A stretch of 64,000 nucleotides of DNA from Pseudovirgaria hyperparasitica (lineage: Eukaryota). Numbering within the stretch: the stretch's first letter is position 1; every line of letters starts with the position of its first letter. Of this stretch, positions 13,765 through 38,349 are shown one piece after another. Position numbers and translations under genes: made by a program. The notes below the pieces were generated by a model. That model saw nothing but the letters and a program-made list of their open reading frames with translations. It was not told the DNA's origin and did not search any database. Location of the stretch: NCBI GenBank assembly GCA_010093815.1, contig ML996568.1. The stretch is one strand, 5' to 3'.

Positions 13765-13978
13765 AAGAAGAAGAAGAAGAGAAAGGGAGAGAGAGAGAAA
13801 GGGAGAGAGAGAGAAAGGGAGAGAGAGAGAAAGGGAGAGAGAGAGAAAGGGAGAGAGAGAGAAAGGGAGAGANNNNNNNNNNAGAGAAAGGGAGAGAGAG
13901 AGAAAGGGAGAGAGAGAGAAAGGGAGAGAGAGAGAAAGGGAGAGAGAGAGAAAGGGAGAGAGAGAGAAAGGGAGAGAC
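13765..13978. repeat. GA-rich tandem repeat (about 16-18 nt unit, GAAAGGGAGAGAGAGA) containing an assembly gap (N, 13873-13882)
   Basis: Directly visible. True length unknown because of the gap. Confidence 0.95.
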
Positions 13979-25524: not shown

Positions 25525-28500
25525 CTACGGCCTAACCCCAAACCGCATCCGCACCCCCATACTAGCAAGCTCACAATCCAACAACCTCAACACCCCCGGC
25601 ACAGCAACAACAGTCACATCCTCGCCACCCACCCACCGAACCCCCTGCCCATCCTCCCAAACCTCACACCTCGCCTCCTTGCCCTCGGCGCGCCGAGCAC
25701 ACCTCCGACACCTGACGGGCCCGCCACTATACTTATTAAACCGGCCACGCGCGGCAAACGGATCAACACTAGGCAGCGTAGCCAGAAACCCGCCGCAGGA
25801 GCGACAGCACCAGGCCTTCTGGTAGTCTGAGCAATTCATGAGGCGATCCTGGAGGAGGTAGGCCGCGCCATGGGCAATCAGGGCGTCGCGCTCCATTTCG
25901 CCGACGCGGATGCCGCCGCCCTTTTTGCGGCCCTTGATGGGCTGGCCGGTGGTCGGGACGACGGGGCCCGTTGTGCGGACCTGGTATTTGTCGTTGACCA
26001 TGTGGCGCAGACGCTGGTAGTAGACGACACCGATGTAGATGTCTGCGGCGAGTTCCTCGCCTGTGATGCCCGAGTACATGGGCTCGTTGCCGTAGTAGTT
26101 GTAGCCTGCGCGACGGAGCTGGTCGCCGAAGAAGGCGACGGCGGTGTGGTCTTCGGACCAGCGCCAGGGGGTGGAGTCCTGGGCGAGGCCGTGCAGGGCG
26201 CCGGATTTGCCGGCGAGGGACTCGACGAACATGCCGATTGTCATGCGGGAGGGGAAGGCGTGCGGGTTGATGATGACGTCGGGCTGGATGCCGGATTCGG
26301 AAAAGGGCATGTCGGTGCTGGGCCAGCGCTGCGAGCAGACGCCCTTTTGGCCGTGGCGGGAGGAGAATTTGTCGCCGATGATGGGCGAGCGCGGGATGCG
26401 GAGCTTGATGCTGAGGGTTTGGCAGGGCGTGTTGCCGTCCTCGGAGCCGATGAGGCGGACTTCTTCGATGAAGGCGTCCTCGTCGTCTTTGTATTTCTCG
26501 ATGTGGGTTTCTTGGTCGTTGTTGATGTATGTGTGGGTGGCGGCGTCGTAGGAGACGTTGTGGTATGCCGCGATCGGGTCGCCCTGTTTGATCTTGGCGC
26601 CGACGATCGGGAGGCCGTCGACGTCTATGATTTCTTTGTATTCCGCCTTGAAGATGCTGCCTGGCGCAATGCCGAAGATCTTGCTGATGGTCTTGGCGGA
26701 GTGTTTGCGGTTGTTTTCCTCCAGTGGGATCTTCTTTGTCTTGTAGATGCTTCCGTGACCGAACCCGCGTTCGTGGCCGGACTTGTTCAATATCATGGCG
26801 TCGTCCATGTCGTACCCGGTGTACGAAATGACGGCCACGACGGCGTTGGTTCCGTTGGGGAAGTTGTCGAAGCCGTAGTCATTATGCAGGGGAGCTCGGA
26901 CAATCGGCGTTTGACCGGCTTGAAGACGATAAGTCTTGTTGTCGGTACGGTACCGCAGTGCTGTTCCTGGTGTTCCCATGGTCTGTTTACCCATCTGACA
27001 CTGATACATATTTCTTGGAGATTGGTTGAAGTCTGAAAAGGGCGTCATATTTGCGACAATGGAGAGGATGTTTGTAGGATCGTACTCGACATGAGTGGTA
27101 TCCCCTGATTCAATCTCATGCTCTCTACACGCAATTGACATATACGGTTGCTCAAACGGACCAACGTAGTCCAGCTTGTCGAGAGGTAGGTACTTGACTG
27201 GTCGGTAGAATCGCGCCGGGTGGGAGAACATGTACACTCCCGGATATGTGCCACCGTTGGAGTTCGGAATATAGCCGACCTCAAGCTCCAGTGGAACGCC
27301 ATGCGTACCCTCTACTTTCCAGTATCGTATTGTCTGTGCAATCATTTTTGCTTGTTTCGGTGCGCAGAATCCCAGTATGCGCCCATCGAGCTGTACTACA
27401 ACGCTATCTTCAGGCGATGCCGACGACTTAGCTTGTATTCCAAGGCCTGCGACCAGGTCTGGGATCTTCGAGGTGTCGACCGGTTTGGTGGAGATTTTAC
27501 AGGTATGGGATAAGTGATTGAGGAGACCACAAGGCGCACCATCAGGCGTATGCACAGGGCACAGGAACCCCCAGCTCTCCGGTAACAGCTTTCTCACTGT
27601 AGTTGTACGTAGCTCGGCAAAGAAGCTACCTCTGTGAATCATGCGGAAATGGCTTATGAAGCGGTAAAAGTTGAGCTTTTCGGCAGCAACGGTAAAGCCC
27701 GACACCTGCTGTAGATCCAGACCTGAAACACTCGTCAGATTGCCAGTGGCAAGAAAGTACTCGAGCATTTGCCCGATATTTTGATTTGTTCGTTTCAGTA
27801 TCTTCGAGTCGAAGGTGCTGGATGCGAAATTTGGAGAGGTGAAGGATACTCCAGGGTTTGATCTCAGCCAATCGTTGATCGATAGACGAATTGAAAGTAG
27901 CCACTCCTCCAGCTTCTCTTTCAAAATCATGCTGTACAAGAATCCACCCAGCAGGACTTCTTGATTCTGCACGGCGTCAGGGTTGTCGACTGCGCATTCA
28001 CCTTCGACGAGCGAGAACAGCTTCTTGATCATGAACAGGAGAAGACGGAACTTGTCTCTGTCCTGGCTCTCGGTAACATTTGAAGCTCCTAGATGAGGCA
28101 ACACAATCCTCCTGAGAAATTCGGTACCAGCCTCTTCGTCCGTGACATCCTCTGCAAGTTGCAGGACGACCTTGAACTTATTGCCTAAATAGGCTCGCGT
28201 CTTCGATCGTCCGTTCAAGTTGTATGCCTTGTATGTTCGGATCATGGCTTCTACGCGGTCAATTACGAATTGCTTGTCGTCTAGGCCTTTCGATCCCGGT
28301 CCACCCACAATGCCCTCGAATATTTCGCGATCATTCGTCTCCACGAGAGCCTTTAGTATCATGGACACCGGGATCAGGTATTCGTTCTTCCGCCACGAAC
28401 ATCGAAACGTGACATTGCCGTCGTTGAGGTAGTGGAGGCATATAGTTTGCGATGTCTCGTCTGGTCGCGCAGATCGTAATAGTATGCCATGTTTGGTGTA

Positions 28501-29222
28501 TCGCGGGCCCCGCTTTGTAAATGACGGTCGGTTAATCGCGAGAGGGTAATTTCGCTTCGTTAGGATGAGCATTCGAATGAGCTTCTCGATCCCGTTCACA
28601 ATAAAATAGCCACCCAGCTCTTCAGACTCCTCCTTGGATTTCACCAACTGATATGGGGTCATATTCTGCAGGTGACAGCGATTCGTCTATAGTGCCCGGT
28701 CAGAACCTCAAGTACTGCTATATATAGAGCATTACTTACCCGAAGCATGACTGGAAGCTGGCCGAATTCCCGCACAGACTCGAGCCATTCTCCGCTGTTT
28801 ATCTTATACTCTAGCCTTACTCTCAGTCTTGCGCGATATGATGAATGCCTCTCCCTGCACTCGGCCGGCAGTATAGTTCTGTTAAGCGTGAACTTATTCG
28901 TAGGCGGTAATTCAGGCTTCTCCAGCAGAACTTCCTTGATACGCACGCTCAGGCGATTCCTTGTGGGCGCACCGCTTGCCACATCCTTTCCTGAGCCCGC
29001 ATCCAAATATACCTTGGTGCCAATCTCTTTCAATCCTTCACTGAGGATTCCGCCCTTCTCGAAAATCGCATTGAACGAGTTCACATGGGGCTCTATGGCA
29101 GCAGCGAGCATAGGATAGGCGGTGTGATCTTTAGGGGGGTTTCGAAAGAGGTGCTGCCGCCGCAGCGTGTCGAACTCTGTAGACCATTTTGTGCTCGTGG
29201 GTTTGGAGGCCGGAGGTGCCAT
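25525..29222 (-). CDS. RPA2: RNA polymerase I second-largest subunit; intron 28739-28687
   Basis: GGYFIVNGIEKLIR, RKLLPESWGFLCPVHTPDGAPCGL, GYDMDDAM, GDKFSSRHGQKG, YYQRLRHMVNDK, GIRVGEMERD, C-terminal zinc ligands. Confidence 0.97.
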
Positions 29223-33324: not shown

Positions 33325-33866
33325 ATGGCTAGATGTCGCGATGCCTACACTGGCAGAATATACAGATGCAATAGTGCTTGGTCCGATTGGGTCCGCTGGG
33401 TAGTACTGGCAGTCATCGTCATTGCATTCCTCCTCCTCTTCTTCCTATGCTCGTAAGTTTGAATCATTCTCGAATGCCTCATAGTCCCTCTTCTGATTAC
33501 ATCAGGTGCATCACCGCTCGTCGTCGAAGAAGAGCAGGTCGCACTCCCTTTTACGGCACCGGATGGGCCGTTGGTCGCACAGCACCAGGCCATGGCGTGC
33601 CCACCTACAACAACAACAACCAATGGGCTCAACCTGCACCACCATACACCCCTTCAAATACAGGCACTCCTGGTCAGGGTGGATACTATGCGCCACCTCC
33701 TGGTGCACCACCAGGCGAAAACGCTGGATACTATGGGAACCAGCATAACGGTGTAGAGCTTCAACAACCACAACATGCCCACAACTACAACCGCGGCGGA
33801 GAAGACGTATACGCACCACCCCTTGGCCCCCCACCCGGCAAGAAGGACGATGGGATCATCCGTTAA
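33325..33866 (+). CDS. RCR-family (chitin synthesis regulation / Congo red resistance) single-pass membrane protein; intron 33453-33505
   Basis: RWVVLAVIV transmembrane helix, RRRRRAGRTPFYGTGW, PPPY and YAPPxGPPP motifs. Confidence 0.8.
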
Positions 33867-34568
33867 AATCGCCTACGCGCTTTACAAAGACAACATACAC
33901 TACGTTCACTTCGACGAGACTAAAATGGTGCTATGGGCTTACATTTTCTGACATGCCCATCAAATCGTAAAATAACAATGGTCAGGCAAAAGCGTCTGCA
34001 GTAATGGACGGTGGCTAGGGTTTGGGCTTTCGCGGAAATTGGGAGAACGGCGTTATGAAGAGGTGATATCCCCGTGCTGCTAGTAACAATACTTCATACA
34101 AAATAGTTAAATGGCCACTCAAGGATTCATTTTCCATTGCACTGTTCGGGAATGAGAATATATGCGTTTGATGTGCTGTACTCTCACGTTCTATAATATA
34201 TGTTTTGACCGAAACCGGAGCTACGCGAATTGCACTAGTAATAATTGAACGTGGTTTGTTGAGGAGAGAAGCCAATAGAGTTGTGGAGCTGAGGTCATGT
34301 GACCAAGTCCATCTAATCAATCTGATTCTCGATTTGATTCGCCACACCGATGATGTAGCGCTGCCTCGGATCCGACTTTGCGCAGGACCGACACCGACAA
34401 GTGCGGGCGTCATTTATCAAACTGTCGACTCTAGATTCACCATCCACCATTCACCACCTCGTAATCCAACCCTTCAACATCCACCTACCATCGTCTCTCA
34501 TCTTCAAAGAGTCGCCAAAGGAACTTTTATCCCCCTACAAGCTACGCGAACACCTTACAATTATCATC

Positions 34569-35371
34569 ATGCTGCAGAGATTTGTAGCTACCGCCCCGGC
34601 TCGCGCTGGCAGGATTATCTCAACCGCTGCAAGACCTCAAGTCGCCGCTCCACTCAGAACCGCACAGCCAGCAGTTTCACGACTCCAATCAAGGCGCAAC
34701 TACCATGAAAAAGATAAGCGTCCCTCGCGTTACGACTGTTCAGTCGTGCTGCGGTCGTCTCACCTCCCAGTGATCGACCGACGCGCTCCTCCCAGGGCAG
34801 TGCCCAAGCCTGACATATCACCTTTAAAATAGATTGGAACGCTCAGCTAACACTCGCAGCACTGCTCGACCATTACAACAACCCCCGCAATGTTGGATCA
34901 ATGTTGAAGACTGATACCGATGTCGGAACGGCACTCGTTGGCGCACCGGCGTGCGGAGACGTGATAAAGCTTCAGATCCGAGTGGACCCCAACGATAACA
35001 CCATCAGCGATGTCAAGTTCAAGGCCTTTGGATGTGGTTCGGCAATTGCAAGTTCAAGTTACTTGACAGAGTTGGTGCGTGGGATGAAGCTTGAGGATGC
35101 GGCCAAGATTCGGGATGCCGAAATTGCGAAGGAATTGTGCTTGCCACCTGTGAAGCGTAAGTTCGCATTACTAGCCCGTGATTCTTCTGCATACTGATGT
35201 TCTCGTGTAGTTCACTGCTCTGTGCTCGCGGAGGATGCCATCAAGTCGGCAATCTCGAACTACTATACCAAGAACCCGAAGGCCAAAGCGACCGATCTCG
35301 CTGGAACAGGAGGTGTGATGCCGAAAATTGAGATTGAGATGCAAGATACGCCCCAGCAGGCGACTGCATGA
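34569..35371 (+). CDS. ISU1: Mitochondrial Fe-S cluster scaffold Isu1/IscU; introns 34714-34862 (AT-AC) and 35157-35210 (GT-AG)
   Basis: Presequence ending RRNYHEK, then VLDHYNNPRNVG, GAPACGDV, FGCGSAIASSS, LPPVKLHCS. Confidence 0.95.
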
Positions 35372-36690
35372 TGGGCTCACAGCCTTTACTGGTCTTCTCT
35401 TCTTTGTTCAATAGTTCTTGATTGGTGTTATTGCATCACATTCATTAGGCGCAGGTGGTGTCGGTGAGCCTCTCTTTCATGTCATGTGCGTCAATGATGC
35501 ACTCGCTTCATGGCTCGATATCAAAGCAGTATTTCGACGATCTTTTTTGATCAGTAGTTAGCGGGCAAAAGTGTTCTAAGAGAGAAATGAAACTTTATGA
35601 ATAATACAATCTAAAAAGGCGCGTACAACGGTGATGATTGTCAAGGAGATTGAAATGTCCCAAACAGTGGTCAATACAATGAGTCGTAAGAATGAGAAAA
35701 AGAGATTATGGGACGGAGTTTGAGCACCTTTATGGCATCTATTCTTAGTGGCGAATGAACGGGTCTTTGGATATCTGATGGCTTTTTTTTATCAGATGCC
35801 TCCTGGCTCCTGCCTGCCTGCCACCCTACTAAAGGTATGCGACGATTACCAGCAAGACAAGTAATAAGTCATACCACATTCGAGGCGACAATGGATGATT
35901 GCAACCAAACCCCGGGTACACACACTCGCGCTTATGAGCAAGTCTATACAGCTTTTACGTATGTATGTATATATACCGTCCCTCTGAAGTCCCGATCCGA
36001 CTACCACCGCCACGAACCTACACATCAAATTCGGATCAGATCAAATCCCATAGTCCGTCAACAAAGATGCAGCAAACATGGATGCAGTGCCATTACATTC
36101 CAGCACACAGATGATATCGCAAACACGCAAACAAACGCTAGCATATAACCCAGCTGTGCATATATCTGATGATAATTCTATATCTCATATTGTAATGGGA
36201 TAAAGCTATGTACGCTCGATGTTATTACATACAGGAAGCACAAGCTTACGACTCTACGCGACAGCCCTAGAAAAATAGATATTTTCAATATGCTGCAGTA
36301 ATTATATATGGACGTACAGTACTTGCAGCCGCTCAGCAACAGCAACAACGAGCGTTGGTAGCCGTTGCTTGCCGCCACTGCGAGCCGGCTGCTTTGCCGA
36401 GTCTGCTCCCCGGACCGCGCCCCCGCCCAAGCTCTAATAGTTACTAACTAGTGGCTGTGGGGTCGTGTGTGGTAGCCTGTAGGTAAGCTTTCCCTCGAGG
36501 ATCTCCGGTTGTGTGCTTCGAATGGGATGTACCCGCGTGAAGCTGCCGAAGTACACGAGGTGCTGGACAGGGCTTGTTTGTGTTGCTTTTATGGGCTTAT
36601 AGGGGTGTGGATGCCCGGTTTGTTATGCGCTGATCCTACCCTCTCAGTTGCCTGCGACTTTCTGAGCTGTTTGGGCTTGCTTTGATCGGG

Positions 36691-38349
36691 ATGGTTTCCT
36701 TCACACTGTCGGTGCGGGCTACGGCCTTGTACTCGCGGTCGGCCTCAAGGGTGAGTTAGCTGCTTGTATGGTGTGCAGGTCAATTGCTGATGTTCGGTAG
36801 CCGTTTGCGTCCACTCGATCGTTCTCCTGCACGGCACGCTTCTATGAGATTAACAAGATATATCCGTCGGCGAAAGAGGCTATCAAGGATATGAAATCAG
36901 ACTCAACACTCCTCTGTGGTGGCTTCGGATTGTCTGGCGTAGCTAACACGCTCATAAACGAAGTCAAAGCCACTCCCCATATCAAAGGACTTACTGCAGT
37001 TTCAAATAATGCCGGTGTCCCGGGCAGTGGGCTGGGACTGCTGCTGGAGTCTAAGCAGATCAAGAAGATGATTGCGAGTTATATTGGCGAGAACAAGGTT
37101 CTGGAATCGCAATATTTGGACGGCTCAGTTGAGGTCGAGCTCACTCCACAGGGCACGCTGGCAGAGAGGTGTCGCGCTGGTGGCCACGGCATACCGGCTT
37201 TCTACACTCCAGCAGCATTTGGCACGGTGGTGCAGACCGGAGAGCTACCCATCCGCCACAATCCTGACGGCACGGTCGCTGAATACTCGAAGCCTAAGGA
37301 TGTCAAGGTCTTCAATGGCAAGAGCTATATCATGGAGGAAGCAATCAAAGGTGACTATGCCTTTATCAAATGCCACAAAGCAGACAAGCTGGGCAATCTC
37401 CAATTCCGCCTGGCTGCGCAGAACTTCAACGGCGCCATGGCACGCAATGCGACTGTCACCATTGTCGAAGCAGACGAGATTGTTGAGCCCGGCGAGATCG
37501 ACCCGGTCGCCGTCCACGTCCCTGGTATCTATGTCGACCGTGTTATCCAGTCTCTCGCTCCCAAGGGTATCGAGAAAATCGTCAACGCAAAAGCGCCCGG
37601 CGAGGAGAGCACCGCTGGCATCCTCGGCACCGGCGACACAGCTAGCAAGCGCGAGCGTATAGTGCGGCGTGCGGCCAAGGAGTTCAAGAACGGCATGTAC
37701 GCAAACTTAGGCATTGGCATGCCGATGCTGGCGCCCAGCTTCGTCGATCCGTCTGTCGAGGTCCAGCTACAGTCTGAGAACGGCCTGCTGGGACTCGGTC
37801 CGTATCCGCAGAAGGGCGAAGAGGATCCGGATCTGATCAATGCGGGCAAGGAGACGGTAACGCTGAACCCGGGTGCCTCGTGCTTTGGGTCGGACGAGTC
37901 GTTTGGCATGATCCGCGCAGGGCGAATTGATTTGACGATCCTGGGTGGCATGCAAGTCAGTGCAAAGGGTGATTTGGCGAATTGGATGTTGCCGGGCAAG
38001 GTCAAGGGTTTCGGTGGTGCAATGGACTTGGTATCGAATCCGCAGAATACGAAGGTTGTAGTGACAATGGAGCATACCGATAAGAAGGGCAGGCCAAAGA
38101 TCTTGAAGCAGTGTGAGTTCCCGCTCACGGGCAAGGCTTGTGTGTCGAGGATTATTACGGATCTGGTAAGTGTTGCTTGAGCTGCGAATATGAAGCCGTA
38201 TACTGACTGGTGAATAGTGTGTATTTGATGTTGACTTTACGAACGGTCTTACCTTGGTTGAGCTTGCGGACGGTGTTACTGTGGATGAGATTAAGTCGAA
38301 GACGGAAGCACCTTTCAAGGTGGCAGACGAGATCAAGCCGATGCTGTGA
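36691..38349 (+). CDS. Succinyl-CoA:3-ketoacid CoA transferase (SCOT), mitochondrial; introns about 36751-36800 and 38166-38216
   Basis: CGGFGLSG, VSNNAG, ELTPQGTLAER, ANLGIGMP, LQSENG (catalytic Glu), GGAMDLV. Confidence 0.95.

Follow-up and report, generated by a model that had tools for sequence, protein, structure and literature searches.

The ISU1 gene of the dothideomycete Pseudovirgaria hyperparasitica carries as its first intron a genuine AT-AC intron, which is precisely spliced and whose terminal AC is used over an AG located 3 nt upstream. We think it very probable that this is a natural U2-type intron, which is removed by the major spliceosome, is of ancient origin and has been kept in place by a two-mutation barrier. 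The intron had been noticed in a preliminary description made from the letters of the stretch analysed here (64 kb, hereafter the window), and that description is partly supported by our results. The gene structure it proposed is right and its positions for the ATAAGC donor, the in-frame TAG, the GCTAAC motif, the intron end and the start of exon 2 all agree with the sequence; its functional interpretation found no support in the present analysis.

ISU1, the gene coding for the IscU-type protein, occupies positions 34569-35371 on the plus strand and consists of three exons (Table 1). Exon 1 encodes an N-terminus that resembles a mitochondrial presequence and ends in TAC CAT GAA AAA G, of which the final G is the first base of the valine codon that follows YHEK. 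Exon 2 opens with TG CTC GAC CAT TAC and by itself matches the Pfam family NifU_N with an E-value of 1.1e-38 and 132.6 bits (cut-off 22). The conserved cluster-ligand cysteines and the LPPVK motif are counted as defining features of IscU/Isu1, and both are present in the 199-aa translation of the spliced gene, which contains YHEKVLDHYNNPRNVG, GAPACGD, GCGSAIASSS and LPPVKLHCS. Among the matches listed, the spliced protein is 75-94% identical to fungal proteins, many of which are named IscU or Isu1. The neighbouring open reading frames code for a homologue of the second-largest subunit of RNA polymerase I with Rpa2 domains (25525-28686, minus strand), a protein of the RCR (chitin synthesis regulation) family (33375-33866, plus strand) and a CoA-transferase (36801-38180, plus strand). 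No iron-related neighbour was found among the open reading frames scanned, and the context is one of ordinary housekeeping genes. Further upstream, at 13873-13882, the window contains ten N in a row, which represent an assembly gap or a masked stretch.

Table 1. Features of the ISU1 gene and of its first intron, in window coordinates.
Feature	Position	Strand	Remarks
Exon 1	34569..34713	+	ATG at 34569; covered by the X3 and X4 transcript contigs, which end a piece at 34713
Intron 1	34714..34862	+	149 nt, AT..AC, phase 1; X3/X4 joint 34713 to 34863
Intron 1, 5' splice site	34714..34719	+	ATAAGC, preceded by exonic AAG
In-frame TAG if intron 1 is retained	34830..34832	+	retained product of 87 aa
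Branch-site motif	34846..34851	+	GCTAAC; branch A presumed at 34850, at a distance of 12 nt from the intron end
Nearby AG	34858..34859	+	lies 3 nt before the AC site; used by no contig
Intron 1, AC 3' terminus	34861..34862	+	X3/X4 joint
Exon 2	34863..35156	+	core of the NifU_N/IscU domain; Pfam match and contig pieces
Intron 2	35157..35210	+	54 nt, canonical GTAAGT..TAG; X3/X4 joint 35156 to 35211
Exon 3, coding part	35211..35371	+	TGA stop at 35369-35371

Five public sequencing runs (X1-X5) contain the stretch. Whereas all sampled words are found in X1 and X2, which may be the source of the assembly itself, 0.75 of them are found in X3 and X4, two runs from one sample with the same organism code whose kind is recorded as '?'. 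Over positions 34300-35800, a contig of 1382 nt from X3 (depth 868.7) and a contig of 1703 nt from X4 (depth 1842.1) each align as three pieces that correspond to the three exons. At the first joint, exactly the AT..AC segment whose removal had been predicted is skipped, with no positional ambiguity (both=0); the second joint skips the GT..AG intron, and the contigs have 0 other letter differences. Since both introns are exactly removed, we regard these contigs as derived from cDNA. None of the X3/X4 contigs covers intron 1 and none uses the AG at 34859, where it has to be kept in mind that contigs drop rare variants, do not display minor isoforms, levels or ends, and are silent on partial retention or on the use of an AT-AG pair. 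The metatranscriptome X5, which bears another organism label, contributed a single contig of 152 nt (34565-34713) that stops at the end of exon 1 and is too short to span the joint. The X3 contig begins at 34354 and the X4 contig at 34423, after 20 loose letters that presumably represent sequencing adapter; if this is the case, the 5' untranslated region would comprise at least about 145-215 nt, the contigs not defining the start of transcription.

Intron 1 ends in ...CGCAGCAC at 34862, followed by the TG of exon 2. Its removal yields YHEKVLDHY, and splicing to the upstream AG would instead give YHEKALLDHY; the preliminary description had pointed out this second product and the translation agrees with it, but the contigs use the AC. 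It had further claimed that no convincing GT/GC donor lies near the junction. We listed every combination of a GT, GC or AT donor with an AG or AC acceptor that leaves an open frame, and in-frame GT-AG pairs do exist. The pair 34720-34859 (GTCCCT..CAG) leads to YHEKDKPLLDHY, and among the further options are the donors at 34729 and 34738 combined with the AG at 34859. All of these donors are poor, and the resulting products either contain additional residues between YHEK and LDHY or lack conserved ones. Only the removal of 34714-34862 yields the motif seen in correctly modelled homologues, and the GT-AG alternatives, which break this motif and are absent from the X3 and X4 contigs, were rejected. 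The exon-intron junction AAAG|ATAAGC (34710-34719) also contains a GATAAG core, a type of sequence recognised by GATA-type factors, fungal iron regulators among them. The core has probably arisen by chance from the splice-site sequence, and species with an inferred ATATG donor would be without this core.

The intron is conserved in related genomes. A scan of metagenomes with exon 2 returned 80 loci, of which five with 82-88% identity (L001-L005) were examined; the other 75 (L006-L080, 62-70% identity) were left out as probably bacterial. Both genomic relatives among the five, L001 and L005, have an AT..AC intron at the same codon. In L001, which lies on a contig of 22.7 kb, the intron is 105 nt long and reads AAAG|ATAAGT...CTAAC...TCAC|TG, with the branch motif 12 nt from the 3' end, and in L005 it is 128 nt long and reads AAAG|ATAAGT...CTAAC...AAAC|TC, with a distance of 11 nt. 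The preliminary description had suggested looking for a conserved AAAG|ATAAG..CAC|T. L001 agrees with this at both ends; L005 has this donor but a different 3' end, which terminates in AC. Neither of the two has an AG near the 3' end of intron 1, and in both the second intron is canonical and placed as in the window. The remaining three loci, L002-L004, are transcript-like sequences of 1.0-1.4 kb, and all three lack both introns and read YHEKVLDHY.

A much wider distribution is suggested by deposited proteins. Three protein searches, in each of which the best 120 of 8000 scored candidates were kept, gave 312 distinct proteins. Among these listed matches, 182 of the 312 show the correct junction YHxK-V[L/I]-DHY, 55 carry an insert after YHEK, 63 lack YHxK, 11 lack the DHY anchor and one lacks both. 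A gene model that misses an AT-AC intron at this site reads from exon 1 into G|AT, and an aspartate (GAY codon) is then expected directly after YHxK. Such an aspartate is found in 65 of the 66 listed proteins that have no V[LIV]DHY at this position, which supports A at +1 in the underlying introns; the single exception is a correctly spliced variant. The aspartate is followed by lysine in 31 and by methionine in 16 of the 65 listed proteins. The 3' end has left a comparable trace, as an intron ending in C should produce a leucine (C|TN codon). Two residues before DHY, leucine is present in 114 of the 116 read-through forms listed, and the residue preceding it has an NNA codon in all 116 (A 70, S 19, L 10, P 8, V 6, plus K, T and I). 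The in-frame translation of CTAAC, xLT, is present in 61 of the 116. These counts refer to related sequences and not to independent events, and the AT and AC termini in the other species are deduced from proteins. The proteins with the aspartate come from many Dothideomycetes (Alternaria, Bipolaris, Aureobasidium, Venturia, Phyllosticta), from Eurotiomycetes (Coccidioides, Blastomyces, Emmonsia and Aspergillus niger, tubingensis, fumigatus and nanangensis) and from Lecanoromycetes (Xylographa, Heterodermia, Icmadophila), class assignments that were checked for some of the species. Two proteins from Geoglossum umbratile (P0157) and Trichoglossum hirsutum (P0190) have unrelated N-termini and read ...SALL and ...SVLL, respectively, before DHY. 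This x-L-L pattern fits an intron ending in AC, and the AT-AC intron may therefore extend to Geoglossomycetes. Eight listed proteins named as Leotiomycetes, a class that we assume for all of them except Cadophora, have YHxK-V[LI]-DHY, and so do all 109 new proteins, largely from Sordariomycetes, among the matches listed for the correctly spliced query, which favours such matches. Leotiomycetes and Sordariomycetes may thus be without the AT-AC intron, be it that they lost it, never had it or have a canonical one in its place, as far as this biased, protein-only comparison goes. In human ISCU, alternative first exons are joined to the common part roughly at the corresponding point, and the intron position may be shared with animals.

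That gene predictors would mis-annotate this gene had also been anticipated, and this is the case both in P. hyperparasitica and, with the 65 homologues that read into the intron, among the matches listed. The best match to our query is a deposited protein of 151 aa (P0001, 'iron sulfur cluster assembly protein 1, partial [Pseudovirgaria hyperparasitica]'), which in all 151 residues equals the translation of 34862-35156 joined to 35211-35368. It begins with LLDHY, its first codon makes use of the last intron base, and the whole of exon 1 is missing from this 5'-partial model. For Coccidioides immitis, two deposited proteins, P0092 and P0121 (strain RS), are identical save for 23 residues (D...L) that stand in place of the valine in P0092. 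The homologous intron in this species is hence 66 nt long, in frame and free of stop codons. The correct junction is already present in P0121 and in the deposited models of Rhizodiscina (P0065) and Zymoseptoria (P0168). Both isoforms deposited for Dothideomycetes sp. NU459 (t2, P0073, and t1, P0198) read YHEKDMFPS... and thus enter the intron from G|AT, and neither contains YHEKVLDHY. Another listed protein of 312 aa, named as coming from the firefly Lamprigera yunnana (P0125), is one of the highest-ranking matches, with 71% and 65% identity to parts of the fungal Isu1 queries; it may be a fused model or result from fungal contamination of the firefly assembly.

The consensus of fungal U2-type 5' splice sites is GTAAGT/GTATGT. 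The 5' site of intron 1 is of this type at every position except +1, including a G at +5, as judged by direct comparison with this consensus. Together with the GCTAAC motif, this bears out the U2-type signals that the preliminary description had assigned to the intron. We propose that it is a U2-type 'AT-AC II' intron and that its removal probably depends on the major spliceosome. This machinery would take AAG|AUAAGC for a regular 5' splice site despite the A at +1, and GCUAAC for a branch site of the usual fungal type. During the second splicing step, the initial A of the intron would favour a 3' splice site ending in C, located 12 nt from the presumed branch point, over the nearby AG. The use of the AC at 34861-34862 in preference to the upstream AG could thus be explained by the compatibility of the first and last intron nucleotides. 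Such a compatibility has been described before, as an intron whose first base is changed from G to A is rescued, with lower efficiency, when its last base is changed from G to C (PMC1557818). The mRNA spliced in this way, which is the dominant form as far as the contigs show, would provide the cell with normal Isu1. The intron would have originated before the split of Dothideomycetes, Eurotiomycetes and Lecanoromycetes, and its persistence could be due to the fact that a conversion to GT-AG needs two changes, with GT-AC and AT-AG intermediates that splice badly in an essential gene. Most likely, the conservation of the AT-AC ends needs no regulatory role.

One has to ask whether the unusual ends could be an artefact, caused by an error at 34714 in place of a true G, by template switching during reverse transcription or by a GT-AG junction that is the real one. 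An assembly error and a canonical cDNA junction had been named in the preliminary description as outcomes that would overturn it, and both were looked for. The X1 DNA contig is identical to the window, including the A at 34714, and could for its part be the very data from which the assembly was made; L001 and L005, which are independent genomic contigs, likewise have A at +1 and C at -1, as do, judging from their proteins, dozens of species. A true G at 34714 would leave the AC at the 3' end as it is, the joint is free of end repeats and restores the conserved motif, and the in-frame GT-AG pairs that do exist are used by none of the X3/X4 contigs. We regard this explanation as largely refuted and give it next to no probability. 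An intron with AT-AC ends could also be of the U12 type and be spliced by a minor spliceosome that the lineage has kept. In support of this, intron 1 shares with such introns the terminal dinucleotides and a branch motif that ends in TAAC, and the distances of 11-12 nt to the 3' end in the window, L001 and L005 fall into the U12 range of 10-15 nt. U12-type introns are characterised by ATATCC at the 5' end and CCTTAAC at the branch site (PMC3033335), but the 5' sites found here are ATAAGC or ATAAGT with G and not C at +5, and the branch motifs are CAGCTAAC in the window and AAGCTAAC or CAACTAAC in the relatives. The preliminary description had relied on the absence of the U12 spliceosome from most ascomycetes; published surveys agree in reporting that Ascomycota, or Dikarya, are without U12 splicing, minor introns and most minor snRNAs (PMC2846911, PMC10639083). 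A search of the window with Rfam gave 0 hits at the gathering threshold, which says little about the genome as a whole. Removal by a minor spliceosome is accordingly very improbable in our judgement.

The preliminary description had gone further and suggested a possible iron- or Fe-S-responsive switch, in which an inefficient intron gates the gene and its retention leads to a truncated product or nonsense-mediated decay. In a fuller form of this idea, the inefficiency would be deliberate, and use of the AG could likewise lower the amount of functional Isu1. Several observations could be read in this way: retention leads to an in-frame TAG in P. hyperparasitica, a competing AG lies next to the AC site, an A...C intron obtained by rescue splices less efficiently than one with G...G ends (PMC1557818), and the non-canonical ends are conserved in three fungal classes. 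Against this, the contigs contain the AT-AC-spliced form only, at the high depths given above, although this test has little power. The premature stop is not a family-wide feature, as the stop-free, in-frame intron of C. immitis would give none on retention, and L001 and L005 lack the competing AG. Our literature search found nothing that ties ISU1 splicing to iron or to AT-AC introns, genes without a regulatory story are reported to have conserved AT-AC II introns too (PMC1557818), and a two-mutation barrier would equally lead one to expect long conservation. An iron-responsive splicing switch is therefore unsupported here and somewhat disfavoured, and we think it unlikely. More speculatively, the AT-AC ends could themselves be under selection if they make ISU1 splicing rate-limiting and tunable, the productive share then following iron or Fe-S status or the state of the second splicing step. 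This we consider unlikely as well; if true, it would mean a post-transcriptional control of mitochondrial Fe-S assembly that is common to Dothideomycetes, Eurotiomycetes and Lecanoromycetes.

The reading we prefer, a major-spliceosome AT-AC II intron, has precedents. U2-dependent AT-AC II introns are known from SCN4A and SCN5A, where this was shown experimentally, and from TAF2; 15 are listed in human, their preservation in orthologues is reported, and such introns have been hypothesised in xylanase genes of filamentous fungi (PMC1557818). The ISU1 intron resembles those of SCN4A/SCN5A and TAF2 in its AT..AC ends, in its ordinary U2-type 5' and branch sites, in the long retention of its termini and in its rarity. 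It differs in that it resides in another gene and another lineage, that its dependence on the major spliceosome is deduced, and that no competing machinery is expected in a host group reported to be without the minor spliceosome. With the double mutants engineered in yeast and human, in which the first G was changed to A and the last G to C (PMC1557818), it has in common the pairing of a first A with a last C that allows the second step, but in ISU1 this pairing occurs naturally, has become fixed and apparently allows splicing at a level sufficient for an essential gene. Among fungal introns, AT-AC pairs are rare: a share of 0.03% has been given (PMC4084796) and 13 cases have been reported in Ganoderma (PMC11590231), and for Dikarya the published figures lie at roughly 0.01-0.03%, with AT-AC introns also being noted as a cause of mis-annotation (PMC4084796, PMC3577648, PMC11590231, PMC7072748). 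In the Ganoderma lingzhi gene chr6g0094801 (PMC11590231), a missed AT-AC intron likewise truncates or distorts the model, whereas in ISU1 the error recurs in one orthologous gene of many species. In Fusarium graminearum, one AT-AC case is included among the genes with non-canonical sites (PMC3577648). Our literature search, which did not cover the gene concerned in the F. graminearum case, did not turn up any account of an AT-AC intron conserved in ISU1 of fungi.

Taken together, the first intron of ISU1 is a naturally occurring AT-AC intron that has become fixed in an essential gene, in fungi for which surveys report no minor spliceosome. It would be a clean in vivo case of the rule by which the major spliceosome requires compatible first and last intron nucleotides, and the same read-through signature is present in proteins of the genetically tractable species Aspergillus niger and A. 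tubingensis. The finding also explains a recurrent annotation error, as 65 of the 312 proteins among the matches listed have spurious residues after YHEK and 63 are without the N-terminal part containing YHxK; allowing an AT-AC pair at the ISU1 site would correct these models. With the intron in three classes and no sign of it in the listed proteins of Leotiomycetes and Sordariomycetes, its distribution would be a dated case showing for how long non-canonical splice sites can stay frozen behind a two-mutation barrier.
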